A DNA stretch of 64,000 nucleotides from Arenicellales bacterium (GTDB taxonomy: Bacteria > Pseudomonadota > Gammaproteobacteria > Arenicellales > JAJDZL01): assembly GCA_951813075.1 (NCBI GenBank), contig OX638343.1:1335999-1399998 (forward strand), in the 5' to 3' direction. Both the position numbers and the translations under genes were made by a program. Below are positions 16,343-46,345 of this stretch, in pieces (the stretch's first letter is position 1; every line of letters starts with the position of its first letter). The notes beneath the pieces are model-generated. The model made no database searches. It saw only the letters and a program-made list of their open reading frames with translations, and was not told where the DNA came from.

Positions 16343-17600
16343 ATCTCATTTGAATGACAGCTGCATGGCGGATTTTGATGTTGCTTCAACGCCTTATGAG
16401 GAAGCACTGTCATCAATACTTCACAGAATCACACCAGTCGCTGAAACAGAACGATTGGCGATTCGGGATGCTATTCACCGTGTCGTCGCCGAAGACATCT
16501 ACGCAGATCAGAACGTACCGACCGACCGGAACTCGGCGATGGACGGTTACGCCTGTAGATATTCCGACCTGGCAGAAAAGAACGCCGAATCCAGATTGCG
16601 CCTGGTCGGGACGTCGGCCGCCGGCAGTCCGTTCACAGGCGAAATCGATAAAGGTTGTTGCATCCGAATATTTACTGGTGGTGTCGTGCCGGATGGACTG
16701 GACACGGTTGTGATGCAGGAAGACTGCAGTATCAGTGAAGATGTGGTGACAACAACCAATAGCCATCGGCTGGGGCAGCATATCCGGCAATCCGGTGAGG
16801 ATATCACCGCAGGTGAAATCGCATTGAGTAAAGGGCGGACAATCGGGACAGCTGAACTGGGGTTACTTGCATCGGTCGGTCGCGCAGAGGTATTGGTGCA
16901 CCGAAAACCCAGGGTCGCATTTTTCTCCACCGGTGATGAGTTACGCGCGGTCGGCGAGAAATTGAATCCGGGTGATGTCTACGACAGTAATCGCTACACA
17001 CTGTATGGAATGCTTCAAAGTGCCGGGGTTGAACCGGTTGATCTTGGTGTCGTTCGCGACGACCTGGAGCAGACAATCGCCGCATTGAGAGTGGGCGCAT
17101 CAAAGGCAGATGTGGTTGTCACATCAGCCGGTGCATCGGTGGGTGACGCTGATTTCGTCAAACAGGCACTCGAGAAACTGGGAGAACTTACGCTTTGGAA
17201 AGTCGCCATGAAACCAGGACGACCTTTGGCGTTTGGCAAGATTGACCAAACCTGGTTCTTTGGTCTACCCGGAAATCCAGTTTCGGTCATGGTCACATTC
17301 GACAAGTTCGTTCGGCCCGCTCTGAATCGACTCAAGGGCGAAAAACCATCGATCCCGATTCGATTGAATGCCAGAATTGCCAAACCAATCCGCAAACGAC
17401 CCGGTAGACTCGAATTTCAACGAGGAATCCTCAGTTTTGATTCAAGTGGAGAACCAGTGGTAGAGTCTACCGGCAATCAAAGCTCTGGTGTTCTGACTTC
17501 CATGAGCCGCGCCAACTGCTACATCGTTCTGCCTTTGGCGTCGGGCGACTTGGACGCCGGGACAACGGTTACCGTGGAACCGTTCGAGGCGCTTTTATGA
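16335..17600 (+). CDS. moeA: molybdopterin molybdenumtransferase
   Basis: 421 aa with MoeA domain order (...SAMDGYA..., ...GLPGNPVS...). It overlaps the moaC stop by 8 nt. Confidence 0.9.
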
Positions 17601-17616
17601 CATGGTTCGATGACTC

Positions 17617-18189
17617 ATGTCTGATATTGCCAAATGGGACCAGAAGTATCTGCGACGAGAGCACGGGAACGAATTGACGCCGGACCCGTTGCTCGTCGAG
17701 TACAGCAATCTATTCGACGCGACGCACACTGTCATCGACCTTGCGTGCGGAACCGGGCGCAACGCAATCTATCTAGCCAAACTCGGTTGCTTTACAGTGG
17801 CATTGGACTGCAGTCGGGAAGCGCTTCGTCTCTGTCAAAAATTCGCACAGGAATCTGATGTCCAGATACATGCCGTTGCAGCCGACTTGAATGAAACTCG
17901 CTTGCCAGCTGAATCAACCGATGCAATCGTATGTTTCAATTACCTCAACTTTGAACTGGCTGACGATCTTCAGGCGGCACTTAAGCCAGGTGGCGTATTG
18001 ATGATGAAAACATTCAATCAGAATTTTCTCAACGTCAACCCACGCTTCAACCCTGACTACGTACTCAAGCCGAGCGACTTGAAGAACATGTTCGACAAAT
18101 TAAAGATTGTTGCGCTCGATGATGAATGCGTTCCAGCTTCCAATACCAAGAGTTTCATTATCGCCCGCAAACCGGCTAGATCCTCTTAG
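17617..18189 (+). CDS. class I SAM-dependent methyltransferase
   Basis: 190 aa with SAM-binding motif I, VIDLACGTGRNAIYLAKLG. Confidence 0.72.
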   Translation: MSDIAKWDQKYLRREHGNELTPDPLLVEYSNLFDATHTVIDLACGTGRNAIYLAKLGCFTVALDCSREALRLCQKFAQESDVQIHAVAADLNETRLPAESTDAIVCFNYLNFELADDLQAALKPGGVLMMKTFNQNFLNVNPRFNPDYVLKPSDLKNMFDKLKIVALDDECVPASNTKSFIIARKPARSS

Positions 18190-18356
18190 TTCCAGCAAAC
18201 ATCGCCAATCGCTGTAATTGATGTTGTTGGCTTACCCAAAATGTTCACGCACTTGATAGCGAAAGTCCAATATCTGTGAATCTAGCGCCAGTCTAAAAAA
18301 ATTTTGAATTCCAAAAAAAGTCGCTACAATGTAAGTTTTAGTAGTCGATTCAAATT

Positions 18357-19592
18357 GTGAACTCAAAACACATCAGGCTCACATCACACCCTGAGAATCG
18401 CAACGACGTAGCTTTCCTCCACTGGGGTGCCGCATCTCCTCTTGAACGAGGACCAGTCGTTGGTACCCTCACGCCACAAAGAAACGCGATCGGGGCACAC
18501 TCCGGTTCCTATTCTGTATACCGAGCTCTGGCTATTGCTGCGGGAACACTTGATCCTGTTCATGTCCCAGATTTAACCGATACTGCGCCTACCGAGATAA
18601 TCGGACCTAATGTTCAGTGGGCGTCTGCGGAAAAAATTGTTTCGCTTGATCCTTACGGCCATTTGGTCAGCGAAGTGTGGACAGAGAGATTAAGTGAAGG
18701 CTGGGATATCAGACCAACAATTGCAGTTACAAAGGCACGACTGAATATGCCGGAGTTTAGCGGTGCGATTAATACTGGCAGAATGAAAATTGATGGAACC
18801 GTTCTGACCGAAAATGAAGAAGTCCGCGTTACCAAAGTCGCAATCGAGCCCGTCTGGTACCTTCCGGGTATCGCACAAAGGTTTCTGGTAAGCGAAAGCG
18901 AACTGAGACGTTCGCTCTTCGAACATTCAGGCGGAATGTTCACTGAGCTTGTTACACGCAACGACTTGAAGATTTTTCTGCCTCCGATTGGCGGTATTAC
19001 CGTTTATATCTTTGGCGATCTCTCCGCTATTGACAACCCTGACCGCGAAGTGGCTTGTCGCGTGCATGACGAGTGCAATGGATCAGATGTGTTTGGTTCC
19101 GATATATGTACTTGCAGACCTTATTTGGCACACGGCGTAGAGGTATGTGTAGAAACTGCTCAAAAAGGCGGTTGCGGAATTGTTGTCTACAACCGCAAAG
19201 AGGGACGTGCTCTGGGCGAAGTCACCAAGTTCTTAGTTTACAACGCACGCAAAAGACAGCCTGGTGGTGACCGAGCAGAGACATATTTCGAACGCACTGA
19301 ATGCATAGCGGGCGTTCAGGACATGCGTTTTCAAGATCTCATGCCTGATGTATTACATTGGCTCGGAATTGAGCGAATCGATCGGTTTGTTTCGATGAGT
19401 AACATGAAGTACGACGCCATCGTGGGTCAAGGAATTAACATCAGTCAACGTGTCGCGATTCCCGATGAACTGGTACCGGAAGACGCGAGTGTAGAAATCG
19501 ACGCAAAAAAAGCGGCTGGTTACTTCACTAATCAGCCAGTTACTGAAGAAGAGCTCATTGCACCAAAAGGACGAGAATTGCATGACTATTAA
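18357..19592 (+). CDS. GTP cyclohydrolase II-like protein with long N-terminal extension (yeast URC1-like)
   Basis: The C-terminal roughly 180 aa carry RibA hallmarks: CRVHDECNGSDVFGSDICTCRPYL (Cys cluster), VVYNRKEGRALG, and DMRFQDLMPDVLHWLGI. About 230 extra N-terminal residues are present, as in URC1. GTG start, uncertain. Confidence 0.72.
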   Translation: MNSKHIRLTSHPENRNDVAFLHWGAASPLERGPVVGTLTPQRNAIGAHSGSYSVYRALAIAAGTLDPVHVPDLTDTAPTEIIGPNVQWASAEKIVSLDPYGHLVSEVWTERLSEGWDIRPTIAVTKARLNMPEFSGAINTGRMKIDGTVLTENEEVRVTKVAIEPVWYLPGIAQRFLVSESELRRSLFEHSGGMFTELVTRNDLKIFLPPIGGITVYIFGDLSAIDNPDREVACRVHDECNGSDVFGSDICTCRPYLAHGVEVCVETAQKGGCGIVVYNRKEGRALGEVTKFLVYNARKRQPGGDRAETYFERTECIAGVQDMRFQDLMPDVLHWLGIERIDRFVSMSNMKYDAIVGQGINISQRVAIPDELVPEDASVEIDAKKAAGYFTNQPVTEEELIAPKGRELHDY

Positions 19593-20805
19593 TTCTGACT
19601 CTCAAGCGGTTGCATCCATACTTCGTAATCCGCAAGAGATTCGTAACCGTTGCAATGAAATTCTTGCGATGGGAGAACGCGGAGCGCTTCCACATTTTTA
19701 CGTTCACACAGATAAGCTGGATGACGTCGCCGGTATAGTTGCGGACGTGACCAGGCAACGATATCCCGGATGTGATATCCCGATTCACAGCCGCTGGCGT
19801 CACTTCGAAGTCGGCGGTATCGATCGTTGGAAGCAACTGGCGTCCGAGATTCCCACCGAAGAACGAGCTCGCGTCGCGTTAGATCTAGTCATACCAAGCG
19901 TGCTTCTCGACGCCGGAGCAGGAGATACTTGGTGTTACCATGACTCGGAAACTGACCTCGTGTTTTGTCGTTCAGAAGGAATCGCTGTTGCAAGCTTCCA
20001 CGCATTTGCAAGTGGTGGTTTTTCATCCGACTCTGATCAGCCTCTTCGTACTGATGCGGACGGCTTGCTCAACTTTGACATAATTCAACTGGCTAAACAT
20101 TTTCAAGTTGACGACACCAACACGATCGAAGGAATTGAAGGCCGAACACAACTACTTCATTCCCTCGGCCAATTGCTCAAAGCCAGAAAGGATATTTTCG
20201 GGGACCCTCCTCGACTTGGTTGCATGTACGATTATTTTCTAAACCGCGATAGCGCTCCTGTTGCAGCAGATGTTCTGTATGTGATATTGGATACCATTGC
20301 ACCGATCTGGCCAGGGCGTATCCAGTTGAGCAGCACCAATCTAGGTGATGTCTGGAGACACAGTGCAGTTCGCCGGGAAGATGAAACCGATCGACTTGTT
20401 CCATTTCACAAGCTCTCACAGTGGCTCACCTATTCGCTCCTCGAACCGTTTGCAGATGGCGGCATCCACGTACAAGAATTGGACGCTCTAACCGGACTTG
20501 CCGAATACCGTAACGGCGGACTTTTTATTGACGGAGATGTACTTGTACCACGCGATCCACAAGTCCTCGATATCGAACATCCCCCGGAATCTGAAATCAT
20601 TGTTGAATGGCGCGCACTAACGGTTGCTCTATTAGACAGATTGGTTCCACTTGTCTGCGATAAGTTGGCACTGAAAAAAACAACCCTATCGCTCGCGGCG
20701 ATGCTGGAAGGAGGAACATGGGCTGCTGGACGAAGACTTGCTAAAAGTTTTCGCAGTGGTGGGGGACCTCCATTGCGTCTGGTTTCGGACGGAACTGTGT
20801 TTTGA
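19582..20805 (+). CDS. DUF1688 family protein (yeast URC4-like)
   Basis: LRNPQEIRNRC...VTRQRYPGCDIPIHSRWRHFEVGGIDRW matches my recollection of the DUF1688 N-terminal signature. ATG 19582 overlaps the upstream stop by 11 nt. Confidence 0.68.
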   Translation: MTINSDSQAVASILRNPQEIRNRCNEILAMGERGALPHFYVHTDKLDDVAGIVADVTRQRYPGCDIPIHSRWRHFEVGGIDRWKQLASEIPTEERARVALDLVIPSVLLDAGAGDTWCYHDSETDLVFCRSEGIAVASFHAFASGGFSSDSDQPLRTDADGLLNFDIIQLAKHFQVDDTNTIEGIEGRTQLLHSLGQLLKARKDIFGDPPRLGCMYDYFLNRDSAPVAADVLYVILDTIAPIWPGRIQLSSTNLGDVWRHSAVRREDETDRLVPFHKLSQWLTYSLLEPFADGGIHVQELDALTGLAEYRNGGLFIDGDVLVPRDPQVLDIEHPPESEIIVEWRALTVALLDRLVPLVCDKLALKKTTLSLAAMLEGGTWAAGRRLAKSFRSGGGPPLRLVSDGTVF

Positions 20806-20812
20806 TTGTTGA

Positions 20813-21457
20813 TTGGAGGAAAGACCGTTGGAAAACGTCACAGTAATCGATCACCCCTTGGTGCAACATAAACTTTCTCTCCTTCGAAATAAGGAGACCG
20901 ATACATTTACATTCCGGTTGCTGTTGCGCGAAGTATCTTTACTGCTCGGCTATGAAGTGACAAGAGATTTGGAGCTTGAATTAAACACTATTGAAACGCC
21001 GCTGGCAGAGATGCAAGCACCATTTTTAGCCGGTAAAAAACTTGCCCTGATCTCAATACTGCGTGCCGGAAACGGACTGGTAGATGGACTTCTCGATTTG
21101 ATTCCCTCAGCACGTGTCGGTCACGTTGGACTGTATCGGGATCCTGACACATTGGTCGCCGTGGAATACTATTTCAAAGTACCCAGTGATTTGAGTGATC
21201 GACCCGTAATTGTTGCAGATCCGATGCTGGCGACCGCAAATACAGCAATAGCAGCCGTTGACAGAATGAAAGATGCCAACGCTAGCAAAATCAAAATGGT
21301 TTGTTTACTCTCTTGTCCAGAAGGCGTTGAGGCATTCACTACCGCCCACCCAGACGTACATGTATATACGGCAGCCATAGACGAAAGACTTAATGATCAT
21401 GGGTATATCATTCCTGGGATCGGGGACGCTGGTGACCGACTCTACGGTACCAAATAA
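20813..21457 (+). CDS. upp: uracil phosphoribosyltransferase
   Basis: [13 protein letters not shown], the PRPP loop [12 protein letters not shown], and the C-terminus [17 protein letters not shown]. The start is TTG, so the exact start is uncertain. Confidence 0.9.
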
Positions 21458-21720
21458 ATCTGATTAAATGACGAATGCGGGAATTGAAAAGAAATGAAAG
21501 CAAATTTATTGGCTCAATTATTCCGAAAATGCGGATCAATCGGAAGTATCGAAGTCAACCAATTCCTGAAGAGGCGCTATCACGATAAAAGTTTCACTTA
21601 CAACGGAATTTCTCTGTCACGTGTGAATCCGTTGTTGATTTTGAATATTGTTGACAGAGTGGGTAATAAACATTCTTAAGGCAATTCATCTAGCAATTAT
21701 GTACAACGGAGGGTATCAAC

Positions 21721-22719
21721 GTGTACAAGTCAACCAAGTTATTGATAGTTTCATTGGCGACGATCGCATGTACTGTATTCGGCATCGTCGAAGCGGTCGC
21801 TGACAAGATCAAAGTCGCGGGCATTTACACTCAGCCTATTCAGCAAAAGTGGGACGCGCGGTTGCATGAGGCACTTAGCAATGCAGAAGACCGCGGTGAC
21901 ATTGAATACGTCTATTCGGAAAAAGTGTCGAATACGGACTACATCCGAGTGTTAAGGGAATATGCTGAAAGCGGTGTCGCACTGATCGTCGGCGAGGCAT
22001 TTGGGATCAGCCGGGAGGCCAGAGAAGTCGCCGATGATTATCCAGATGTCGCATTTCTGATGGGCGACTCGTTTGGACCGCATGGTTCAAATTTTGCAGT
22101 GTTCGACAACTATATTCATGAGCCTTGCTACTTGATGGGAATACTCGCTGGATCAATGACCAGTTCTAACCGGATCGGAATGGTTGGAGGTTATCCAATC
22201 GGTGAGGTGAACCGTTTGTTTCATGCTTTTATGAATGGTGCTCGATCAGTCAATCCTGAAGTTGAGTTCAAGGTGACTTTTATCGGGTCATGGTACGATC
22301 CACCGAAAGCAAAAGAAGCTGCTTTTGCGCAGGTCGAAGCTGGTGTAGACGTTCTTTATGCTGAACGTGCAGGCGTGGTAGATGCAGCACGCGAAAGCGG
22401 TATCATCGCATTCGGTAATGTCAATGACATGAACAAGGAAGAAAACGGTACGGATGTCGTTGTTACCTCTGCATTGTGGCATATGGATGCTGCGATCAGC
22501 AACGCGATTCAAGAAGTCAAAGATGGTAGATTTGGTGCGGTCGATTACAAGGAATGGACAATGATGCAAAAAGGCGGTGCCAGTCTTGCGCCCTATTATG
22601 AATTTGAGGATCGAATCCCAGCTGACGCAAAAGCTAAAGTCGAGCAGATTGCAACGGATATTCTAGCTGGCAACTACGTCGTTGAAATTATCGACGATGA
22701 ACCAAAATCTACCTACTGA
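21721..22719 (+). CDS. BMP-family (PnrA-like) ABC transporter substrate-binding protein
   Basis: 332 aa with an N-terminal hydrophobic signal (LIVSLATIACTVFG) and a type I binding fold containing VTFIGSWYDPPKAKEAA. GTG start. Confidence 0.82.
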   Translation: MYKSTKLLIVSLATIACTVFGIVEAVADKIKVAGIYTQPIQQKWDARLHEALSNAEDRGDIEYVYSEKVSNTDYIRVLREYAESGVALIVGEAFGISREAREVADDYPDVAFLMGDSFGPHGSNFAVFDNYIHEPCYLMGILAGSMTSSNRIGMVGGYPIGEVNRLFHAFMNGARSVNPEVEFKVTFIGSWYDPPKAKEAAFAQVEAGVDVLYAERAGVVDAARESGIIAFGNVNDMNKEENGTDVVVTSALWHMDAAISNAIQEVKDGRFGAVDYKEWTMMQKGGASLAPYYEFEDRIPADAKAKVEQIATDILAGNYVVEIIDDEPKSTY

Positions 22720-24247
22720 GGATAATTCGGCAACTTTGGAAGAAATCCTCAAGCTTGACGGAATTACCAAACGATTCGGAAATCTGACAGCCAACGATGG
22801 CATCAGCCTGTCGTTGGCTGTTGGGGAGATACTTGCCGTACTCGGAGAAAACGGTGCTGGCAAGACAACATTGATGAACATCATATTCGGCCACTATGTG
22901 GCCGATGAAGGGAGCGTAGAAGTACGCGGACAGTCACTGCCACCAGGATCTTCAGAGGCAGCGATTAAAGCTGGTATCGGAATGGTTCACCAGCACTTTA
23001 CGCTCGCTGAGAATCTAACCGTGCTGGAGAACATCATTCTCGGGCGCGAACCTCTTTTTTCAATCCGACAAAAACTATCGGCTGGTCGGCGCAAATTGCG
23101 TGCTTTATCCGAACAGTTCGGACTTGACGTTCAGCCCGACACACTAGTCGGTGACCTTACCGTTGGTCAACGACAACGAGTCGAAATCCTAAAGGCGCTT
23201 TATGCAGACGCGCAAATTTTAATTCTTGATGAGCCGACTGCTGTATTGACGCCACAGGAAACAGAAAACCTTTTCGCTACTCTGCGTAGCTTGGTCAAAA
23301 AAGGAATGTCTGCAATCATAATTTCCCATAAACTCAATGAAATTCTTCGAATCAGTGATCGAATTGCTTTACTGCGGCGTGGAAAATTGATCGGTGTTGT
23401 AGATGCCAAAGATGCTGACCGAGATCAACTCGCAGAAATGATGGTCGGTCGAAAAGTAACCAGACCGAAAACACAGAGCCTGAAAGCTGGAGCAGCCGTC
23501 CTGAAATTGGAAAACGTCTCGACTTCCGGGGCAAGTAGCAGCGAAGACCTCAAAAACGTTAATTTGAGTATTCATGCGCACGAAATTTGTGGGGTTGCTG
23601 GGGTTGCTGGCAACGGACAGAATTCGCTCGCAGATTTGATTTGTGGTATCCGCGCTCCCTCGTCTGGAAGCATCGAACTTATGGGAAAGAAATTGACTCG
23701 ATTTGATTGCCGTACCGTCGTTAAAGCAGGGGTTGGTCGAATACCGGAAGATCGCCACGCGAAGGGAATCATTGGTGAGATGGCGGTTTGGGAGAATCTG
23801 GTGAGCGAAGACTTGCGACAGCCACCATTCATACGCGGTGCTTTTCTACTCGATAAATCCGCGGGTTGTGATCACGCTGCGTCAACTATTGAACGTTACG
23901 ACATCCGATGTCCTGGTCCACAAGCTGAAACCCGCTTGCTTTCCGGTGGCAATCTGCAAAAACTGATATTGGCTCGAGGATTGTCCCGACAACCTCGGTT
24001 AATCATCGCCAGTCAACCATCGAGAGGCTTGGACGAAGGTGCAATAGCCTATGTACACGGTCAGTTATTGGAAGCGCGAAAGCATGGTGCCGGGATACTA
24101 CTGATCTCAGAAGATCTTGACGAACTTCTATCTCTTGCCGATCGGATCGCAGTAATATTTCGAGGGCAGTTGCGCGAGATACCAGCCGAAGCGTCCCATG
24201 ACATTCGTCAAATAGGACTGATGATGAGTGGACAGGAAGCAGTGTGA
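22697..24247 (+). CDS. ABC transporter ATP-binding protein, fused double NBD
   Basis: The first NBD has GENGAGKTT, LTVGQRQRVEILKAL and ILDEPT. The second NBD has LSGGNLQKLILARGL. This layout is typical of BMP-type importers. Confidence 0.9.
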   Translation: MNQNLPTEDNSATLEEILKLDGITKRFGNLTANDGISLSLAVGEILAVLGENGAGKTTLMNIIFGHYVADEGSVEVRGQSLPPGSSEAAIKAGIGMVHQHFTLAENLTVLENIILGREPLFSIRQKLSAGRRKLRALSEQFGLDVQPDTLVGDLTVGQRQRVEILKALYADAQILILDEPTAVLTPQETENLFATLRSLVKKGMSAIIISHKLNEILRISDRIALLRRGKLIGVVDAKDADRDQLAEMMVGRKVTRPKTQSLKAGAAVLKLENVSTSGASSSEDLKNVNLSIHAHEICGVAGVAGNGQNSLADLICGIRAPSSGSIELMGKKLTRFDCRTVVKAGVGRIPEDRHAKGIIGEMAVWENLVSEDLRQPPFIRGAFLLDKSAGCDHAASTIERYDIRCPGPQAETRLLSGGNLQKLILARGLSRQPRLIIASQPSRGLDEGAIAYVHGQLLEARKHGAGILLISEDLDELLSLADRIAVIFRGQLREIPAEASHDIRQIGLMMSGQEAV

Positions 24248-25296
24248 TTAGACTCGAACCGCGAGAGCGAGTTCCAATCTGGCTCGCTGGAATCGCACCG
24301 ATTGTGGCCATCATTGTCACTCTGGTGCTGTGCTCGGCGCTGATCCTGTGGGCTGGTGAGCCGGTATTTCAATCGTATTTGTTGCTTGTCGAAGGCGCTC
24401 TAGGGTCAAAGTTCGCAATTTCTGAAACCCTATCGAGGGCAACTCCGCTGATTTTCACCGGTCTCGCAGCTGCTGTGGCATTTCGTGCAAAGTTCTGGAA
24501 CATAGGTGCAGAAGGACAGTTCTACTTTGGTGCCCTGGCGGTAACCTGGATTGGTACGGGTCTATTCTCACTCCCACCAGTGTTGATGATTCCCATACTG
24601 TTTCTGGCCGGTGCAGTTGCCGGTGGCGCGTTACTTTATGTACCGGTAGTGCTTAAAACGCGTCTGAACGTTGACGAAGTCGTTACTACCCTACTTCTCA
24701 ACTTCGTAGTGATATTGCTTGTGAGCTATTTGATTGAAGGACCATGGAAAGACCCGATGTCTTTGGGTTGGCCGCAAGCAGCACCGATTATCGAACAAGG
24801 AGAACTGCCGAAGCTTTTGGAGCGGACTCGTCTCCATCTGGGGTTTGTAGTCGCCATAGTCGCTGCTATCGCAGTGTGGTTTTTGATGAAACTGACAGTG
24901 TGGGGTTACGAAATTCGAGCCGTCGGATTCAATGCGGAAGGAGCATCCTTTGCTGGAATTTCGATCAACAGCACTGTAATCAGGACTGCACTCATCAGTG
25001 GTGGATTAGCTGGTATGGCGGGCGTATCTGAAGTAGCTGGGCTGAAAGGTTACCTGACATTGGATCTATCCCCCGGATTTGGATATGCCGGAATCGCTGT
25101 AGCGATGCTTGCCCAACTTCATCCACTCGGTGTAATCGCTTCGGCTATCTTTCTATCGGCGATTTTTATAGGCGCTGATTCGATGAGCCGATCGAGTGAT
25201 GTTTCAAGTTACATCGCGGATGTGGTAACCGCAGTTTCGTTGTTGCTCGTACTACTCAGCGTCATGCTTGTAAGATTTCGAGTCAGGTGGTCGTGA
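24244..25296 (+). CDS. ABC transporter permease
   Basis: 350 aa, polytopic. GTG start overlapping the ATPase stop. Confidence 0.85.
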   Translation: MIRLEPRERVPIWLAGIAPIVAIIVTLVLCSALILWAGEPVFQSYLLLVEGALGSKFAISETLSRATPLIFTGLAAAVAFRAKFWNIGAEGQFYFGALAVTWIGTGLFSLPPVLMIPILFLAGAVAGGALLYVPVVLKTRLNVDEVVTTLLLNFVVILLVSYLIEGPWKDPMSLGWPQAAPIIEQGELPKLLERTRLHLGFVVAIVAAIAVWFLMKLTVWGYEIRAVGFNAEGASFAGISINSTVIRTALISGGLAGMAGVSEVAGLKGYLTLDLSPGFGYAGIAVAMLAQLHPLGVIASAIFLSAIFIGADSMSRSSDVSSYIADVVTAVSLLLVLLSVMLVRFRVRWS

Positions 25297-25325
25297 ACGA
25301 ATCATGAATTCAGAGCCGGATTGAA

Positions 25326-26273
25326 ATGGCAGATATTTTCGAAATCTTAACGACCCTAGGGTTCTGGGCTGCGACTTTGCGAATCGTCAGCCCGCTAATC
25401 TTCGGAACCTTGGGCGAATTGCTTTGTGAGCGAGCTGGCGTACTGAATCTCGGTATTGAAGGCATTATGACGATTGGTGCGATGGCGGGTTGGATGTGGG
25501 TTTTTCAAGGAGGAGATCTGTGGACAGCGGTTCTTTTTGCTGCGTTTGTTGGTGGCATATTCGGTCTTTTGCACGCGAGCTTTACGGTTTACCTCGGTGT
25601 TTCCCAGCATGTGACAGGAATCGGAATTACTCTGCTTGCTGTCGCACTCAGCTCATACATTTTTCGAATGATGTTACCGGAAGTAACGACACCGCCTAAG
25701 ATTGTTCCTTTTCAAATTTATGAAGTTCCACTTTTACATGAGATTCCATTTGTAGGCCCAGTATTATTTAGCCAAACACCGCTGACGTATCTTGCTCTAT
25801 TGCTGGTTCCTGTCGTGTGGTACTTGCTCTATCGAACACCTATGGGTCTCGCCATTCGCATGGCAGGCGAAAATCCAGTGGCAGTTGAGGCGCAAGGCAT
25901 TGATGTATTGATGGTGCGAACCGCAGCAGTGGTTGCTGGCTCCGCAATGATGGCGATAGGAGGTGCTTTTCTTACCCTGTCGGCATTCGACGCTTTTTAC
26001 TTTGGAATGATTAACGGTCGAGGGTGGATATGTATTGCACTAGTGATATTTGCATCGTGGCGACCTGGTAAAGCACTCATCGCCGCATTGCTATTCGCGG
26101 GATTGGACGCGCTTCAAGTTCGTGCGCAACAAGTTGGAGGAGCGGTCATACCCTACCAGTTTTTCCTGGCACTGCCGTATTTACTCACCATAGCCGCCAT
26201 GGTGGTGATGTCGAGACGCACCGCCTATCCCAAGGCGTTACTCAAACCGTTTCGACGCGGTGATAGAATTTAA
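25326..26273 (+). CDS. ABC transporter permease
   Basis: 315 aa, polytopic; second permease of the BMP-type system. Confidence 0.85.
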   Translation: MADIFEILTTLGFWAATLRIVSPLIFGTLGELLCERAGVLNLGIEGIMTIGAMAGWMWVFQGGDLWTAVLFAAFVGGIFGLLHASFTVYLGVSQHVTGIGITLLAVALSSYIFRMMLPEVTTPPKIVPFQIYEVPLLHEIPFVGPVLFSQTPLTYLALLLVPVVWYLLYRTPMGLAIRMAGENPVAVEAQGIDVLMVRTAAVVAGSAMMAIGGAFLTLSAFDAFYFGMINGRGWICIALVIFASWRPGKALIAALLFAGLDALQVRAQQVGGAVIPYQFFLALPYLLTIAAMVVMSRRTAYPKALLKPFRRGDRI

Positions 26274-26293
26274 ATCCGAATGGAGGAAAATTC

Positions 26294-27571
26294 ATGATCG
26301 ACCTACTACTAAGAAATGCCAATTTATCTGACGGCCGACACGGAATCGACATTGCAATTGACGACGGCCGCATTATTGATGTCGCATTCGGGATCGAAGC
26401 GGTTGCGAACGAAACTCTCGAGTTGGATAACTGGTTAGTCTCACCACCCTTCGTCGATCCTCATTTTCATCTTGACTCTACCCTGGCCGCTGGACGACCT
26501 CGCGTCAACCACAGCGGTACGCTACTTGAAGGCATCGAAATCTGGGGTGATTTGGCGCCGACACTAACCGCGGACGACATCAAAAATAGAGCCCGTGAGC
26601 TTTGTCACTGGTCTATTGCCCGGGGTTGTCTTGCGATTCGTAGCCACATTGACGTTACCAATGACTCACTTCTCGCGGTTGATGCACTTCTTGATCTTCG
26701 AGAAGAAATGGCGCCTTGGATTGATTTGCAATTTGTAGCTTTCCCTCAAAACGGGTTCTACCGATATGCCAATTCACCTCAAAATCTTGTGCGCGCACTT
26801 GATAAAGGAGTGGATGTGGTCGGTGGTATTCCTCACTTTGAGCGAACAATGGCTGATGGTGCAGCCTCCGTAAAGGCACTTTGTGAAATCGCAGCAGAAC
26901 GCGGACTGTTGGTAGACTTACATTGCGACGAAACCGATGATCCGAATTCTCGCCACATTGAGACACTCGCACAGGAAACTCAACGACTGGGTATGCACGG
27001 GCGAGTTACAGGCTCGCATCTGACATCAATGCATTCGATGAACAACTACTACGTGAGCAAGCTACTTCCGTTGATGAAGGAAGCTGAAGTAGCCGCAGTT
27101 GCCAATCCGTTGATCAATATCGTCATTCAAGGCCGTCACGACACCTACCCCAAACGACGTGGGATGACACGTGTCAAGGAAATGGTTCAGATGGAGATTC
27201 CAGTTGCGCTTGGGCATGATTGCGTCATGGACCCTTGGTATGGACTCGGCAGTCATGACATGCTGGAAGTAGCGCATATGGCTGTTCATGTCGGTCAGAT
27301 GACGGGTGTAGACGAAATGAATACCATTTTTGACGGTATTACCAAAACCGCCGCTGAAACTCTTCACTTAGAAAACTATGGAATTGAACCCGGCTGCAAT
27401 GCGGACCTGTTAGTCCTTCAAGCTCGAGATCCCGTAGAAGCGATTCGATTGCGTGCAACGCGGCTTTTTGTGCTGCGTCGCGGTTCAGTTATTGCTCAAT
27501 CAAAACCTGAACAATCCACCTTGACATTCGGTGACAAAGAACAGACGGTCGATTTTCTCGCTAGACAATAA
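26294..27571 (+). CDS. codA: cytosine deaminase
   Basis: PPFVDPHFHLDSTL (HxH metal site) and SGTLLEGIEIW. The protein is colinear with E. coli CodA over its length. Confidence 0.8.
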   Translation: MIDLLLRNANLSDGRHGIDIAIDDGRIIDVAFGIEAVANETLELDNWLVSPPFVDPHFHLDSTLAAGRPRVNHSGTLLEGIEIWGDLAPTLTADDIKNRARELCHWSIARGCLAIRSHIDVTNDSLLAVDALLDLREEMAPWIDLQFVAFPQNGFYRYANSPQNLVRALDKGVDVVGGIPHFERTMADGAASVKALCEIAAERGLLVDLHCDETDDPNSRHIETLAQETQRLGMHGRVTGSHLTSMHSMNNYYVSKLLPLMKEAEVAAVANPLINIVIQGRHDTYPKRRGMTRVKEMVQMEIPVALGHDCVMDPWYGLGSHDMLEVAHMAVHVGQMTGVDEMNTIFDGITKTAAETLHLENYGIEPGCNADLLVLQARDPVEAIRLRATRLFVLRRGSVIAQSKPEQSTLTFGDKEQTVDFLARQ

Positions 27572-27612
27572 TTGTCGGATCAACCCGATTTGTCGACGCT
27601 ATAAGAAACTAG

Positions 27613-28103
27613 AATTTTTCGTACGTCTTTGCTCCAGCATCGAAATTCGGAAGTTACCTGATACCCCAATTAGCCGTAATGCTGGATGTCCAGCAGATTT
27701 CTGACACTAGTGAAATTTTCAGCGACGATACTTTCGTTGGTCCGATCTATGCTGGAAATGCGTTGGCCACGGTACGGTCATCTGAATTTGTAAATCTGAT
27801 CACCTTGCACACCACAGCTATGGATGCCACCATCTAACAGGATGGTACTGGAAATGTTGGGGATCTGGCATCATTGGAAAACTCCGGATTGGCTGCATTT
27901 GTCCGTCATGACCTCACCCGAATTGAACGATACGAATCAACTGCTGTGAGGGTCGTCTTATCCGGTGGACGGGGTATGCGAAGCGGCATAAATTCACCAT
28001 GCTTGAGAATGTGGTCGACAAACCAGGAGCAACGGTCGGCACTTCCAGAGCGGTGTTTGATGCAGAATATTTGCCGAATACTAACGGGGACCGGGCAGGA
28101 TGA
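27613..28103 (+). pseudogene. etfA: decayed electron-transfer flavoprotein alpha-subunit (etfA) relic
   Basis: Fragment 1 (frame 1) reads YVFAPASKFGSYLIPQLAVMLDVQQISD...TFVGPIYAGNALATVRSS..., ending at TAA 27835-27837. Fragment 2 reads ...RVVLSGGRGMRSG. After a frameshift near 27990, fragment 3 reads KFTMLENVVDKPGATVGTSRAVFDAEYLPN. The N-terminal roughly 100 aa and the C-terminal FAD-binding tail are missing, and there is no etfB upstream. Confidence 0.75.
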
Positions 28104-28106
28104 CAG

Positions 28107-28991
28107 TTACTCACCTGCAGAGTCAGGTTTTTCAGACTCAGACAGCGCTTTTTGAAATCTTACATCCCGGTAATAACCCAGTGCAATGATCAGTGACTGC
28201 GCAAGAACTATTGCACCGGACAAAGGACGAAATCGGTGTACTTTCGCATCACGGACTATAAAACAAAGACTCGAATTTCGAGCAAGAGGACTAGTCATCA
28301 AGTCGGTAATTGCGAGCACCGGGACGTTGCGGATGTATGCGTCGGAGACTGCATCGACAACCGGTTGCGCATATTCAGCAAAACTAACGGCAATCAACAG
28401 ATCTTTCGCGTTCAATGTGGCAATCTGTTGAGTAAGCATGCCGCCGACCGAATCAAGCAAGTGGCAACGGTACTCGAGTCTGGCCAATCCATAAGCGAGA
28501 TAAGCTGCGATTGGAAAAGCGCGTCGCTGTCCGATGACATAAATATCGCCTGTGCTGTCCATCATACGAATCGCCTCCTGCAACTTGTCTCCATCAATAT
28601 CATCTTTCAAGTGCTGCAGTGCCAGTATCGATGCATCAGCGAATTCTTTAAGAATAGCAGCGGAATCCGTTTCCGCTATTTCTTCCATTTTCTGACGGTG
28701 ATCGTAAATTTGATCACGAAACGTTGGAACCCCTTCAATCAAGCGCAATCTGAAGACTCGTTGCATCTCGGAGAAACCCGAATACCCGAATACTTTGGCC
28801 AGCCGAATCAGCGTGGATGGCTGCACACCAATTTGTTGCGCTATTTCTGCGACAGTGTACAAAGCAAAGCGATTTGGATCTTCAAGGGAGTACTGCGCAA
28901 CTTTTTTTAAATGCGGACTTAATTCCTCAAACTGGTGTTGAATAAGTTCACGCAATCGATCGAAGTCGAGTGGTGCTTCGTTGTCCATCAT
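28107..28991 (-). CDS. MurR/RpiR-family transcriptional regulator (HTH + SIS domain)
   Basis: The N-terminal HTH is YTVAEIAQQIGVQPSTLIRLAKVFGYSGFSEMQ. The C-terminal half is a SIS sugar-phosphate-binding fold. It is transcribed divergently from the operon at 29459. Confidence 0.85.
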   Translation of the reverse strand: MMDNEAPLDFDRLRELIQHQFEELSPHLKKVAQYSLEDPNRFALYTVAEIAQQIGVQPSTLIRLAKVFGYSGFSEMQRVFRLRLIEGVPTFRDQIYDHRQKMEEIAETDSAAILKEFADASILALQHLKDDIDGDKLQEAIRMMDSTGDIYVIGQRRAFPIAAYLAYGLARLEYRCHLLDSVGGMLTQQIATLNAKDLLIAVSFAEYAQPVVDAVSDAYIRNVPVLAITDLMTSPLARNSSLCFIVRDAKVHRFRPLSGAIVLAQSLIIALGYYRDVRFQKALSESEKPDSAGE

Positions 28992-29359
28992 GCAGCGCTC
29001 ATTTACATTTGATCCAAGTTGGATTCTATTCCGGTCATTACCTATCAGGAAGTGACTTCGATATATGGCAAATCAAAAAATTTATTCGTCAAAGTTCAAG
29101 ATTGCTGCTCAGTGTTGTCGCAGCTGAAACCCAATCGCTGTCAAACCCCATTTCTCATTCGCCTTGTCAGACTGTTAATTGTAGTGCAAGTTAAGCGAGT
29201 TCATTTTCCGCAAGTTTGCGCTGTCAAAGTTGAAAACATCAATTCTGATCAAATTGGAAATTCATCATCATCCCACAACGACGAATAGTCAAAATTTTCT
29301 CAGATTCTTCGCGTCTGAACGTGAAGTTCGATCATTTTCATTCAATTTAAAAGGAAGTA

Positions 29360-29412
29360 TTGACAAATACAGAATTTTTATTCTAAAATTTAGAAATAAT
29401 GAAATATTCATT
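29360..29412 (+). promoter_or_regulatory. promoter with two adjacent palindromic operator candidates
   Basis: TTGACA (29360-29365), an 18-nt spacer, then TAAAAT (29384-29389). The palindrome TTCTAAA-a-TTTAGAA (29381-29395) overlaps the -10 element. A second palindrome, AATGAA-ata-TTCATT, lies at 29398-29412. Confidence 0.5.
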
Positions 29413-29458
29413 TTATACTGTGTATAAGAAATAATTATTCAATTTGATGGGAGTGCAG

Positions 29459-30379
29459 ATGACAGTAGCAGTTGGTTTTGCCGGTCTGGGACTTATGGGT
29501 AGTGGAATAGCAAGAAATATTCTTTCTGCCGGTTATTCATTATCCGTCGTTGGCCATAACAAGCGGACCAATCTAGACGATTTGGTCAAGCGCGGGGCGA
29601 GAGAGTTTAACACTTACCGTGACTTGGCGGAGCACTGTGACCTGATCATTCTTTGCGTAACCGGAAGCCCTGAGGTTGAAAGCATTCTTTATCCCAAGGA
29701 TGGGTTGTTGGAAGGCATTCGCGAAGGCAAGATTGTCATTGACTGTTCAACGAGCGAACCTGGTTCGAGCGAACGAATCGCGAGTTCGCTGGAAAAACTG
29801 GGGGCATCTTTAGTTGATGCTCCTCTCGCACGTACGCCGGCCGATGCACAAGCCGGTCGTCTTAACACGATGGTTGGTGCATCAAACGACGATTTTGCGC
29901 GCGTTGAACCTTTGTTGCAAGAATTTTGCGAAAACATATTCCATATGGGACCTGTAGGTTCAGGCCACAAAACCAAACTCATCTACAACTTCATTACCAT
30001 GGGTTATGCCGCAATTATTTCCGAAGCCTTTTGCGCTTGCGCAGCTACCGGAGTCGATTTGAAGAATTTTTCCGATGTAGTGGCTTCAGGTGGAGCCAAC
30101 AGCGGAATATTTCAGCTGATCGCGCCAAAAGCCATAGAATCAGGAGATTGTTCCGGGCTCAACTTCAGTATGGCAAACGCAGCCAAAGACCTTCGCTATT
30201 ACAACCGAATGATGGATTCCATCCCTCTTTCGGGAAATTTGGGAAGAGCAGTACAGCATGCACTAATTCAAGGTCTTAACCTCGGTTACGCTGACGGACT
30301 GGTAGGAGACTTGCTACACGTCCAAGAAAAGCTCAACGGAGTGCAAATCTTGAATCAAGAATCCGGAAACAGCGCTTGA
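29459..30379 (+). CDS. beta-hydroxyacid dehydrogenase (3-hydroxyisobutyrate / tartronate-semialdehyde reductase family)
   Basis: GFAGLGLMGSGIARN Rossmann motif and GSGHKTKLIYNF catalytic-Lys motif. The start is set at ATG 29459, which lies behind a GGGAG. Confidence 0.8.
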   Translation: MTVAVGFAGLGLMGSGIARNILSAGYSLSVVGHNKRTNLDDLVKRGAREFNTYRDLAEHCDLIILCVTGSPEVESILYPKDGLLEGIREGKIVIDCSTSEPGSSERIASSLEKLGASLVDAPLARTPADAQAGRLNTMVGASNDDFARVEPLLQEFCENIFHMGPVGSGHKTKLIYNFITMGYAAIISEAFCACAATGVDLKNFSDVVASGGANSGIFQLIAPKAIESGDCSGLNFSMANAAKDLRYYNRMMDSIPLSGNLGRAVQHALIQGLNLGYADGLVGDLLHVQEKLNGVQILNQESGNSA

Positions 30380-30452
30380 CCTACAGCACTGCCTACTAAT
30401 CACATTGGATAAATTTTAAGAATTGAACCTAGTATCAAAAAGGAGAAAATCG

Positions 30453-31772
30453 ATGGACAATAAATCTGGTAAATCCAACTCAATTGTAAATTCAAAGCGA
30501 CGAACTTTGTTGAAAGGAGCGGGGGTTGTGTCAGCAGGCATTGCGTCCGGATTCATGGGCCCCTGGGTCTACAACCGAGTGTATGCCGCGGCTTCGGATA
30601 AACCAATTCTGATCGGTCTGACCTCCGATGCGTCCGGTCAGTACGCGAACTCTGGTGCGTCAGACCGTCGGGGAATGATGATGGCAGTTGCCGAATTCAA
30701 TGCAAAAGGCGGAGTGCTTGGGAGGCGTGTGGAAACCATACATTTCGATACGGAAACCACTCCAGCAACCGGCAGTCGCGTAGCTGAACGTCTCATTACT
30801 CGCCACGAATGTGCGTTTTTGATCGGCGCAGTCAGCTCAGGTGTTGCCAATGCAATTTCGCAAGTCGCGCAGAAATATGGCACTGTGTATCTCAACACCA
30901 ACTCAAGCTCGCCGACAGAATCTGGCAAGAACTGTCATCGAGTAAAGTTCGTGTGGGACGGAAATGGCACCAACTTCGCTCAAGCTGCAGTAAAAAATGC
31001 GATCGATACATATGGCAAGAAATGGTTGTTGATGACCAACGATTATGTCTGGGGTCACAACACTTCTGCAGCCACCCGTAGCTTGGTGGAGATGTTTGGA
31101 GGGGATATTGTTGACGAAATTCTCGTCCCGCAAGGAACTCGAGACTTCTCGGCCATGTTGCTCAAGGTACAGCAGGCTTCTCCGCAAGTCGTTGCTGCTG
31201 CAGTCGGCGGCGATGATCAAAAGGCGATGCGTCAGCAAGTCTCTCAACTGGGACTCGGACAAAACATGGCATGGATCAACAACCAGCAGGATTGGCCCGA
31301 TGTTTACGGTCTGCCGCTGGACAACCTTTTCGGCGTGTTTGGTACGACCTGGTATTGGAAATTGGACCTCCCCGGAGTCGCAGAGTTTGTAGAACGCTAT
31401 CAGGCTATGTATCCAGACACTCGTATGCGCGTTCCTGGAAACGTTTTCTATAACGGCTATATGGCCACTCGCGAGTTGCTTGGTGCGGTTGAACGGGCTG
31501 GTACCACAAATAACGGAAAGGTTATTATGGAACTGGAAAACCTCAAGGTGTCAGCGAGAGACAGAATGCAGCATCATGATGCATATATGAATCCCAATAC
31601 TCATCAGATGCAGCAGACTATTTATCTGGCCACTGCAAATCAAACTGCACAAGTTCCAGACGATATGTTTACCGTTCTCAGCCAGTCAAGCCCCGAAGAT
31701 GTTCGAGATAATGGCGCGGACATGACATGTAGTTTAGAATCTCTTGCAGATACCCCCACATACGAAATGTAG
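30453..31772 (+). CDS. Leu/Ile/Val-binding-protein-type ABC substrate-binding protein with twin-arginine signal
   Basis: The start is at ATG 30453, behind an AGGAG. The signal is SKRRTLLKGAGVVSAGIASG...VYA|AAS. The mature part is a type I periplasmic binding fold (PILIGLTSDASGQYANSG...). Confidence 0.8.
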   Translation: MDNKSGKSNSIVNSKRRTLLKGAGVVSAGIASGFMGPWVYNRVYAAASDKPILIGLTSDASGQYANSGASDRRGMMMAVAEFNAKGGVLGRRVETIHFDTETTPATGSRVAERLITRHECAFLIGAVSSGVANAISQVAQKYGTVYLNTNSSSPTESGKNCHRVKFVWDGNGTNFAQAAVKNAIDTYGKKWLLMTNDYVWGHNTSAATRSLVEMFGGDIVDEILVPQGTRDFSAMLLKVQQASPQVVAAAVGGDDQKAMRQQVSQLGLGQNMAWINNQQDWPDVYGLPLDNLFGVFGTTWYWKLDLPGVAEFVERYQAMYPDTRMRVPGNVFYNGYMATRELLGAVERAGTTNNGKVIMELENLKVSARDRMQHHDAYMNPNTHQMQQTIYLATANQTAQVPDDMFTVLSQSSPEDVRDNGADMTCSLESLADTPTYEM

Positions 31773-31787
31773 TTTCAATCTTTCAGT

Positions 31788-31828
31788 CTGCCGCTGCGAA
31801 TTTGGTGCGTGGCGGCAGTCGTTTTATT
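31788..31828 (+). terminator. intra-operon hairpin plus T-tract after the binding-protein gene
   Basis: CTGCCGCTGCG (31788-31798) pairs with CGTGGCGGCAG (31808-31818): 11 bp including 2 G-U pairs, with a 9-nt loop. It is followed by TCGTTTTATT. Confidence 0.4.
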
Positions 31829-31857
31829 ATGCAGCATCGAATTAGCTTGAGGTTCGT

Positions 31858-32784
31858 ATGACTGTTTCACACATTTTTCCTCATCTTCTTAACGGATTGA
31901 GTCTCGGATTGCTATTTGCTCTGATCGCACTGGGATTCATGCTAATAGTCGGTGTTATGGAACTGATCAATTTAGCGCATGGTTCTTTGTTCGCGCTCGG
32001 TGCCTATTTTGCATTGACTATCATTGATCCGAGTCTTTCCTGGTTCACAGCTGCTGAAGACTCGTACACCGCATTGCCGTTGATATATCGCTACGGATTG
32101 GCATTAATTCTAGCTCCCTTGCTGGTGGCAGTCGTTGGAATGGGACTTGAGTTGTGCATGCGGCGAACCTACGGTAAAAAAGCGGAATATGGGCTGCTGC
32201 TGACGTTCGGCGCCGCACTTGTCATTGAAGAATCGATCCGACTCACCTGGGGTCCCACCGAACGCTATTTGCAGGTTCCCGAATTCATGACCGGTGCCAT
32301 GCTGTTCGCTGGCTTAATCTATTCTAAATACAAACTGTATGCGGTGGTCTTGTCGATCATCACAATTTTTCTGGTCTGGTTGTTTCTGGAAAGATCACCG
32401 TATGGGGCAATTATCAAAGCCGGTGCCCACGACAGCGAGATGGTACGGGCACTTGGAATTAATTTAACCAAGCTTCGATTGCTTGTGTTTGGGTTTGGAG
32501 CGGGATTGGCCGGGTTTGCTGGAATTGTAATGACACCGATTTGGGGATTAAGGCCGCATGTTGGTATTGACGCTGTGATCCCGGCATTTCTGATTATTGT
32601 GGTAGGTGGCATCGGCAGTTTTTGGGGCGCAGTTATTGGAGGAATATTGGTAGGTCTTTCCGTCGGCATCACAGGAGCGTATGCTTCAGATTGGTCATTG
32701 CTCTCAATGTATTTACTTCTAATCATAGTTGTTACATTTCGTACCAGAGGGTTATTCGGCAAAAAAAGCATTCTGGAGAACTGA
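31858..32784 (+). CDS. branched-chain-amino-acid-type ABC permease (LivH-like)
   Basis: 308 aa, polytopic, with LivH-like composition. Confidence 0.85.
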   Translation: MTVSHIFPHLLNGLSLGLLFALIALGFMLIVGVMELINLAHGSLFALGAYFALTIIDPSLSWFTAAEDSYTALPLIYRYGLALILAPLLVAVVGMGLELCMRRTYGKKAEYGLLLTFGAALVIEESIRLTWGPTERYLQVPEFMTGAMLFAGLIYSKYKLYAVVLSIITIFLVWLFLERSPYGAIIKAGAHDSEMVRALGINLTKLRLLVFGFGAGLAGFAGIVMTPIWGLRPHVGIDAVIPAFLIIVVGGIGSFWGAVIGGILVGLSVGITGAYASDWSLLSMYLLLIIVVTFRTRGLFGKKSILEN

Positions 32785-32787
32785 CGA

Positions 32788-33816
32788 ATGATTGTTCGCA
32801 AGATCGCAGCTCAAGACTGGATTACAAAAGAGATGTTGCTGATATTTGTAATTCTGGTTACGCTTCCGCTTTGGATTGAGCAAATCGGTTTGTACCGATA
32901 TCTGGGTGTCGAAATTGTAATTTGGATGATTTATGGACTCGGCTTCAATTTATTGCTTGGTTATTCCGGTTTGCCGAGTTTTGGACATGGTGCATTTTTC
33001 GGAATCGGAGCATATGCCTTCGGACTTTTCCAGCTGTGGTTTTTCGAAAATTTGTGGTTAGCAATTGTTTTCGCGATTTTCGCATCGTTCATTGCAGGTG
33101 CTGCTGTGGCTTGTTTTGTTTCTCATCGACGAGGAATTTATTTTGCGTTGATGACGATTGCATTCGGACAGATTTTCTGGTTCATCGCAATCAAGTGGCA
33201 TTCGGTCACTGGTGGTGAGGACGGGTTGCTGAATATTCCCCGTGCAGCAGCAGATTTCGGCATATTCGCTTTCGATTTGGATTCGAATACAGAGTTGTTC
33301 TATTTCGTATTCATTGTTTTTGTTTGCATCGTTTTGCTGCTGTGGAGACTGGTCCACTCGAAATTCGGAAAAGTGTTGCAGGCCATTCGACAGAACGAAG
33401 AAAGAGCTCGCTTTATTGGATACAACGTTTGGTTGTTCAAATGGGTGGCATTTACGCTATCCGCGGCAATTGCAGGTTTGGCTGGGGTCTTGTTTTCGAT
33501 GGCACAGCAAGGCGCCTACCCTGACGTGATGGCACTTCATGCTTCTGGAATTATTGTCATGATGACCTTGATTGGAGGTGGATTCGTAAGTTTTTGGGGA
33601 CCGGTAATTGGGGTAACAATCTATTTTCTGGCACGTGATGTTCTTGGAATCATCACGGAAGCCTGGCTGCTATGGTTTGGGCTGGTTTTCGTTCTTACAG
33701 TGTTATTCAAGCCGGAAGGAGTAGCCGGAGCCTGGCAGGAATGGCGCAAGTCCAGAACTTCAACAGTTTCGGGATACCAAACCCTGCTGCAATTTCTATC
33801 GACGAAGAAGAGGTGA
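32788..33816 (+). CDS. branched-chain-amino-acid-type ABC permease (LivM-like)
   Basis: 342 aa, polytopic. It starts 4 nt after the LivH-like stop. Confidence 0.85.
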   Translation: MIVRKIAAQDWITKEMLLIFVILVTLPLWIEQIGLYRYLGVEIVIWMIYGLGFNLLLGYSGLPSFGHGAFFGIGAYAFGLFQLWFFENLWLAIVFAIFASFIAGAAVACFVSHRRGIYFALMTIAFGQIFWFIAIKWHSVTGGEDGLLNIPRAAADFGIFAFDLDSNTELFYFVFIVFVCIVLLLWRLVHSKFGKVLQAIRQNEERARFIGYNVWLFKWVAFTLSAAIAGLAGVLFSMAQQGAYPDVMALHASGIIVMMTLIGGGFVSFWGPVIGVTIYFLARDVLGIITEAWLLWFGLVFVLTVLFKPEGVAGAWQEWRKSRTSTVSGYQTLLQFLSTKKR

Positions 33817-33819
33817 CCT

Positions 33820-46339: not shown

Positions 46340-46345
46340 TTCCTA

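Follow-up and report, generated by a model that had tools for sequence, protein, structure and literature searches.

Which enzymes break down uracil in bacteria that carry relatives of the yeast URC genes, and what does the DUF1688 protein do among them? The question is raised by a locus in a 64,000-nucleotide (64-kb) stretch of an Arenicellales bacterium genome (assembly GCA_951813075.1, contig OX638343.1, forward-strand positions 1,335,999 to 1,399,998), which was analysed as a whole and is hereafter called the window. The first-pass annotation had described three genes at 18357-21457 as a candidate URC-type operon for uracil degradation, encoding a URC1-like protein with GTP cyclohydrolase II (GCH-II) motifs, a URC4-like DUF1688 protein and uracil phosphoribosyltransferase (UPRT). 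The three co-directional open reading frames (ORFs) are all present on the + strand in the ORF listing, and the family assignments bear out a bacterial URC-type uracil catabolic cluster of URC1-like, URC4-like and UPRT genes:

18357..19592, + strand: urcA, gene of the URC1-type UTP cyclohydrolase (411 amino acids; Pfam and NCBIfam matches)
19582..20805, + strand: gene of the URC4/urg3-family DUF1688 protein (407 amino acids; longest ORF from 19558; PF07958)
20813..21457, + strand: upp, uracil phosphoribosyltransferase, the URC6 equivalent (214 amino acids; TIGR01091, PF14681)

The locus is real, was correctly recognised and is of a known kind; the copy in the window is an ordinary member, in an extended form with an importer and a cytosine deaminase (CodA). 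The unit is larger than the three-gene operon first described, as five further co-directional genes follow, up to 27571. Judged from the sequence, 18357-27571 is likely an eight-gene URC-type locus for the uptake and breakdown of pyrimidine bases, probably for nitrogen. The sole potentially new element is a relationship between DUF1688 and the queuosine 5'-monophosphate hydrolase Qng1, and it concerns the whole DUF1688 family, not the window copy alone.

In Schizosaccharomyces pombe, urg1 (GCH-II family), urg2 (UPRT) and urg3 (DUF1688) form a uracil-inducible gene cluster (PMC2174524). urg1 and urg3 are orthologues of Lachancea kluyveri URC1 and URC4, and uracil is converted to urea and 3-hydroxypropionate (PMC3869809); URC4 has been put at the step from ribosylurea to urea (PMC7530994). 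The conservation of the URC gene arrangement in bacteria is remarked on in PMC3869809, which cites Andersen 2008, and RefSeq names bacterial DUF1688 homologues 'URC4/urg3 family protein'. A bacterial URC cluster is therefore not novel, being already in print and in annotation. The window shares with the L. kluyveri URC and S. pombe urg systems the GTP_CH_N plus GCH-II, DUF1688 and UPRT families and their physical clustering; the yeast genes are uracil-induced and give urea and a three-carbon acid. Unlike the yeast genes, those of the window form a bacterial operon extended by an ATP-binding cassette (ABC) importer and a cytosine deaminase, and the window shows no sign of a urea amidolyase (URC3,5), a zinc-finger regulator (URC2) or a URC8-type reductase. 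The Rut pathway of Escherichia coli (rutA-G) also frees uracil nitrogen and gives a three-carbon product via malonate semialdehyde. Rut acts on the free base with a flavin monooxygenase, whereas URC acts on a nucleotide with hydrolytic zinc chemistry, and rut genes are absent at the locus.

The 411-residue product of the first gene, UrcA, matches PF12471 (GTP_CH_N) over residues 4-190 (E = 9e-78) and PF00925 (GTP_cyclohydro2) over residues 219-366 (E = 2e-14). The second match confirms the GCH-II motifs reported for its C-terminal part; the N-terminal extension in front of them, which had been put at ~230 residues, comes instead to ~190-218. UrcA scores 727 bits on NCBIfam NF005536 (cutoff 403) and is 64% identical at full length (404 aligned residues, E = 4e-171) to PDB entries 7EEV and 7EJ3, titled 'Structure of UTP cyclohydrolase' (released 2021-07-28) and 'UTP cyclohydrolase' (released 2022-09-21), respectively. 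Going by what the solved enzyme is called, the predicted substrate of UrcA is UTP, not UMP. Two statements of the first-pass annotation have thus been overtaken. URC1 enzymology was called unresolved, which is outdated, as the UTP cyclohydrolase structure 7EEV has been out since 2021; and the system was thought not to have been characterised biochemically in bacteria, which is no longer true for URC1, given the 64% identity to 7EEV and 7EJ3. These solved proteins share with the window UrcA the two-domain architecture and the zinc and catalytic residues; they come from a different organism, and the UTP activity of the window orthologue is predicted. With the UrcA structure in hand, DUF1688/URC4 is the only URC enzyme that remains open. 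The URC reference given in PMC12507026 is Zhang et al. (ACS Catal 2021;11:8895), and a mechanistic theory paper is cited in PMC9499338; beyond the citation of Zhang et al. 2021, we found no bacterial URC enzymology in the literature searched. As a canonical RibA or RibBA, the protein was rejected: its best score was 57.7 bits (NF001591, cutoff 148), TIGR00505 gave 45 against 205.85, and all RibA/RibBA NCBIfam models together gave 36-58 bits against cutoffs of 148-764.

In the HMMER alignment with E. coli RibA (PDB 2BZ0), UrcA C240, C251 and C253 align with the zinc ligands C54, C65 and C67, and R284, Y295 and R324 pair with R94, Y105 and R128. The zinc cysteines, R284, Y295 and R324 are invariant in 32 homologues. 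Ren et al. in 2005 reportedly tied Arg128 of RibA to pyrophosphate release and Tyr105 to ring hydrolysis. Retention of R324, the equivalent of Arg128, therefore suggests pyrophosphate release by UrcA and hence a 5'-monophosphate product. We infer that UrcA would free pyrophosphate from UTP and hydrolyse the N3-C4 and N1-C6 bonds, giving ribosylurea 5'-phosphate and malonate semialdehyde. These products are proposed on the basis of GCH-II chemistry, the end products in yeast and the work of Zhang et al. in 2021, which is reported to describe a two-step hydrolysis of UTP. The AlphaFold2 (AF2) model of UrcA was poor (predicted local distance difference test, pLDDT, 56.5) and was not used for structural argument.

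The second protein spans PF07958 from end to end (profile positions 2-420 of 420, E = 5e-142), so that its DUF1688 assignment stands, as does the UPRT assignment of the third (TIGR01091, 266 bits with a cutoff of 208; PF14681 UPRTase, E = 1e-71). The DUF1688 protein matched neither an NCBIfam model nor a second Pfam family nor any sequence in the PDB. Its AF2 model, made with 38 sequences, is confident, with a pLDDT of 92.9 and a predicted template modelling score (pTM) of 0.91. When this model was searched against the PDB with Foldseek, the top 11 matches were all Qng1/DUF2419 chains (E = 1e-8 to 8e-7, probability 1.00), with target TM-scores of 0.70-0.77 at 14-17% identity. The matches that followed had E > 0.4, the archaeal 8-oxoguanine glycosylase AGOG among them at E = 1.6. 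Furthermore, Qng1 sequences from the PDB were used to make a 34-sequence profile, and hhalign aligned it with the DUF1688 profile at 90% probability (E = 1.7e-6, 279 columns). Both Foldseek and hhalign indicate that the DUF1688 model has the two-lobe helix-hairpin-helix (HhH) glycosylase fold with the insertions specific to Qng1. The likeness is visible by fold search and profile-profile comparison only, not by sequence-only searches. No literature tying DUF1688 to Qng1 was found, much of the relevant literature lying outside the reach of the search.

According to PMC9881137, Qng1 hydrolyses queuosine 5'-monophosphate to queuine and its fold resembles that of HhH DNA glycosylases. The same paper describes D231 as the nucleophile or as stabiliser of an oxocarbenium intermediate, and N72 as the general acid; K199 places the ribose, F75, Y232 and W302 touch ribose and base, and the C-terminal carboxylate enters the active site. 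The profile alignment pairs the residues of DUF1688 and StQng1 as follows, with the Qng1 roles as given in that paper:

DUF1688 D110, StQng1 D69: invariant in both families
DUF1688 A113, StQng1 N72: general acid in Qng1, not kept in DUF1688
DUF1688 W117, StQng1 W76: the β2-β3 hairpin insertion begins here
DUF1688 K277, StQng1 K199: HhH lysine, ribose positioning
DUF1688 Q280, StQng1 Q202: invariant in both families
DUF1688 T304, StQng1 T227: invariant in both families
DUF1688 E308, StQng1 D231: catalytic acid in Qng1
DUF1688 Y309, StQng1 Y232: ribose stacking in Qng1
DUF1688 R344, StQng1 R271: invariant in both families
DUF1688 W380, StQng1 W302: ribose and base contact in Qng1

D110, W117, K277, E308, Y309, R344 and W380 are invariant in all 80 DUF1688 sequences compared, which are 45-55% identical to the window protein. 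The HhH lysine and the ribose-stacking Tyr and Trp of Qng1 are found in DUF1688 as K277, Y309 and W380. The C-terminus reads ...DG(T/S/A)(V/L/I)F in 80 of the 80 sequences, and its last residue, Phe, parallels the invariant terminal Tyr in the 34-sequence Qng1 profile. In addition, DUF1688 has many invariant Arg and His residues, which are suited to phosphate binding. The two families therefore have in common the fold, the HhH lysine, an acid-Tyr dyad, the Trp and an invariant aromatic C-terminal residue, and they share a predicted reaction type, the N-glycosidic hydrolysis of a ribose 5'-phosphate compound. DUF1688 differs from Qng1 in that it is ~85 residues longer and does not keep the residues of the Qng1 base-binding pocket; the proposed leaving group is urea, whereas that of Qng1 is a 7-deazapurine.

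On the predicted structure and the profiles, DUF1688 appears as a distant relative of Qng1 with similar likely chemistry, standing outside the Qng1 family. The most economical reading of its function is that of an N-glycosidase, which would split ribosylurea 5'-phosphate into urea and ribose 5-phosphate. This reading would explain why the DUF1688 gene lies almost always beside urcA. It would also account for the build-up of ribosylurea in urc4 mutants, because the blocked ribosylurea 5'-phosphate would be dephosphorylated. We tentatively propose that DUF1688 is an unrecognised branch of the Qng1/HhH-glycosylase fold that acts as a ribosylurea 5'-phosphate hydrolase with an invariant Glu replacing the HhH Asp and with a C-terminal Phe carboxylate tail; in this complete form, the proposal seems to us possible rather than probable.

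The genes of the pathway are widespread and tightly linked. In the protein database, UrcA and DUF1688 each account for at least 8000 clusters when grouped at 90% identity, and URC locus matches, counted with one genome per species, number at least 600; the matches listed span Alpha-, Beta- and Gammaproteobacteria, Legionella, Myxococcota, Bdellovibrionota and Cyanobacteria. Linkage was counted in the best 80 of these loci, which represent 79 species besides that of the window. In 67 of the 80 (75 had room for it), DUF1688 is immediately preceded by the cyclohydrolase gene in the same orientation; upp follows DUF1688 immediately in 59 (76 had room), and all three are colinear in 57. A BMP transporter is present in five of the best 80 loci and codA in three. 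Neighbour ORF clustering is noisy in genomes of high GC content because of antisense ORFs, and only clusters re-verified with tblastn were used. In ten loci, all from Myxococcota, Bdellovibrionota or 'Deltaproteobacteria', the cyclohydrolase gene is immediately preceded, on its own strand, by the gene of a CoA-acylating (methyl)malonate-semialdehyde dehydrogenase (MMSDH), which scores 499 bits on TIGR01722, over the cutoff. This arrangement independently supports, at the genome level, malonate semialdehyde as the bacterial three-carbon product. The ten loci are L010, L013, L019, L024, L025, L029, L031, L034, L035 and L080 of our set (~7.1-8.7 kb in full-length loci); in L031 the dehydrogenase gene is apparently broken, being found as three tblastn pieces.

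Downstream of upp, the window contains the five genes that complete the locus and, beyond it, two genes with candidate roles:

21721..22719, + strand: BMP/PnrA-family ABC substrate-binding protein, probable pyrimidine base or nucleoside uptake (PF02608, E = 8e-35)
22682..24247, + strand: ABC transporter ATPase with two ATP-binding domains (PF00005, two stretches)
24244..25296, + strand: ABC permease subunit (PF02653)
25326..26273, + strand: ABC permease subunit (PF02653)
26294..27571, + strand: codA, cytosine deaminase, cytosine to uracil and NH3 (NF005748, 728 bits, cutoff 438)
28107..28991, - strand: RpiR-family (HTH_6 and SIS) regulator, candidate local regulator (Pfam match)
29444..30379, + strand: HIBADH-like beta-hydroxyacid dehydrogenase, speculative candidate for a malonate-semialdehyde reductase (PF03446/PF14833)

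The top NCBIfam matches of the ABC ATPase are ATPases of the sugar/nucleoside type, all under cutoff. A sister genome, whose UrcA is 98% identical, has an identical layout of the eight genes. The same eight genes are found in the same order on plasmid p4 of Azospirillum argentinense Az39, where they are annotated as 'GTP cyclohydrolase II', 'URC4/urg3 family protein', upp, 'BMP family protein', two permeases and an amidohydrolase; the latter is 64% identical to the window CodA and also scores over the cutoff of the cytosine deaminase model. An unusually long gap (21458-21720, 263 nt) separates upp from the BMP gene; it contains an 8-bp hairpin (ACAACGGA...TCCGTTGT) and then a T-rich stretch, and a 61-residue ORF with no Pfam match is called there in the sister genome. 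The hairpin could be an internal terminator or an attenuator, or the gap could hold the start of a second transcription unit. The RpiR regulator is oriented divergently and is kept in the sister genome, and it was not found beside the URC genes in the other loci surveyed. The HIBADH-like dehydrogenase scores under every NCBIfam cutoff and is not conserved beside the URC genes in other loci. The 535-nt spacer after codA carries a remnant of an electron-transfer-flavoprotein (ETF) gene (27600-28100, + strand), and at the equivalent position in the sister genome there is a 58-residue fragment with a PF01012 ETF match. The spacer looks like a decayed ETF gene between the operon and the RpiR regulator.

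Taken together, these assignments allow a pathway to be drawn. Cytosine and uracil, or their nucleosides, would be taken up by the BMP-type ABC importer. CodA, by its family, would convert cytosine to uracil with release of NH3, and Upp, likewise by its family, would make UMP from uracil and phosphoribosyl pyrophosphate. UMP would be raised to UTP by housekeeping kinases. UrcA, a zinc enzyme akin to GCH-II, is predicted to release pyrophosphate and to open the uracil ring hydrolytically, with malonate semialdehyde and ribosylurea 5'-phosphate as its expected output. DUF1688/URC4 would then cleave ribosylurea 5'-phosphate at its N-glycosidic bond, yielding urea and ribose 5-phosphate, with Glu308 in the role of Qng1 Asp231 and with Lys277, Tyr309 and Trp380 positioning the ribose. 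Urea and malonate semialdehyde would be processed by genes elsewhere in the genome.

Several observations weigh against this pathway or against the role given to DUF1688 in it. The eight genes may form one transcript or two, given the 263-nt gap with its hairpin. The annotated ORFs of the 64-kb window include no urease, urea carboxylase or urea amidolyase and no clear malonate-semialdehyde enzyme, and codA, upp and the transporter are also classical salvage genes. Both points would fit a locus that is mainly a pyrimidine salvage operon, in which the nucleoside-type importer, CodA and Upp lead to UMP while UrcA and DUF1688 trim excess UTP or remove a damaged nucleotide instead of supplying nitrogen; nor was an NtrC/sigma-54-type signal seen by eye upstream of urcA. 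However, the yeast homologues are uracil-induced and needed for growth on uracil as nitrogen source, the MMSDH gene joined to the operon in ten loci points to carbon recovery from ring breakdown, and salvage, which may hold for the codA, upp and importer part, leaves UrcA, DUF1688 and the MMSDH linkage unexplained, so that we consider a mainly salvage role quite unlikely. It is far less likely still that UrcA is the GCH-II of the riboflavin pathway (RibA) with upp as an incidental neighbour. The PF00925 domain with the zinc and catalytic residues of RibA would suit that idea, and public sources label UrcA homologues 'GTP cyclohydrolase II'; yet the protein reaches only the 36-58 bits given above on the RibA/RibBA models, carries the URC1-specific GTP_CH_N domain, is 64% identical to a solved UTP cyclohydrolase but about 17-20% identical to E. 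coli RibA, and is linked to DUF1688 in 67 of the 79 species of the best 80 loci. No separate ribA was found within the window.

For DUF1688, the adverse points are that the protein has no match to PF10343, the Qng1 family, at E <= 10, and that the DUF1688 profile, searched against PDB sequences, did not find the Qng1 chains at E <= 10. The residue equivalence was taken from the profile alignment. Moreover, the catalytic Asp231 and the general acid Asn72 of Qng1 are replaced by the invariant Glu308 and Ala113, and these changes mean that the chemistry may differ from that of Qng1, although a different leaving-group machinery is expected if urea is the leaving group. It is thus conceivable that DUF1688 acts instead on the ribosylurea nucleoside or on a ring-opened ureidoacrylate ribotide, or serves as a non-catalytic partner of UrcA. 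In urc4 mutants, the reported build-up is of ribosylurea alone rather than of the phosphate (PMC7530994), the Qng1 general acid is lost and a Glu stands in place of the Asp nucleophile, and the overlap of the urcA and DUF1688 genes fits a complex. On the other hand, the nearest structural relative, Qng1, uses a 5'-monophosphate, the Arg128 equivalent in UrcA suggests pyrophosphate release and hence a monophosphate product, the invariant Arg and His residues of DUF1688 suit phosphate binding, and dephosphorylation of the blocked intermediate can account for the accumulated ribosylurea. We regard these other roles for DUF1688, taken together, as rather unlikely, and keep the ribosylurea 5'-phosphate N-glycosidase as the working proposal.

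The packing of the three core genes depends on the starts chosen. The 11-nt overlap of urcA and DUF1688 that had been described is correct with ATG 19582, which is the DUF1688 start called in the sister genome; the longest ORF, from TTG 19558, gives an overlap of 35 nt. Similarly, the 7-nt gap before upp is obtained with TTG 20813, while the gene caller puts the upp start 15 nt later in the sister genome. Upstream of urcA, one further feature had been suggested:

18304..18330, + strand: possible sigma-70 promoter, TTGAAT-15 nt-TACAAT (weak; hexamers read in the sequence)

The hexamers TTGAAT (18304-18309) and TACAAT (18325-18330) and their 15-nt spacer are present as described, and the consensus promoter scan lends them no support; it admits spacers of 16-18 nt only, and the site is thus unlisted. 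Promoter-like sites are not enriched in the region (11, vs 14.1 +/- 4.4 in shuffles). The promoter at 18304-18330 is therefore an unverified guess. An Rfam scan of 17500-30000 gave no match, so that neither a riboswitch nor a leader RNA of any known family is seen there.

Other features of the window touch pyrimidine or central metabolism. De novo pyrimidine synthesis is represented by a pyrR - pyrB - dihydroorotase(-like) cluster at 53134-55897 (+), ~32 kb downstream of the catabolic operon. A five-gene Liv/Urt-like ABC transporter at 30423-35249 (+) scores best on urea transporter models, far under their cutoffs (UrtA, 104-122 bits vs ~493). Its substrate may be an amide or a compound resembling urea. 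There are two transketolase genes, at 37455-39485 (+) and 48615-50621 (-); the latter is the first gene of a minus-strand cluster (43839-50621) made up of tkt, gap, pgk, pyk and a class-I fructose-bisphosphate aldolase gene. A 390-residue ORF at 3316-4488 (-) combines an N-terminal fatty-acid desaturase domain (residues 10-214) with part of an ISL3-family DDE transposase (277-385), which suggests that an insertion-sequence remnant has truncated a desaturase gene. The 561-residue ORF at 39913-41598 (-) has no Pfam match at E <= 1e-8 and no NCBIfam match at E <= 1e-10.

For annotation, the label 'GTP cyclohydrolase II' is misleading for proteins of the UrcA type, and UTP cyclohydrolase is their proper name. 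The BMP-type ABC importer and CodA next door would extend the URC pathway to the uptake of cytosine. If DUF1688 is indeed a ribosylurea 5'-phosphate glycosidase, it would complete the assignment of enzymes in the URC pathway, which has been open since 2008, and the catalytic residues named here make this hypothesis testable in vitro with any bacterial homologue.

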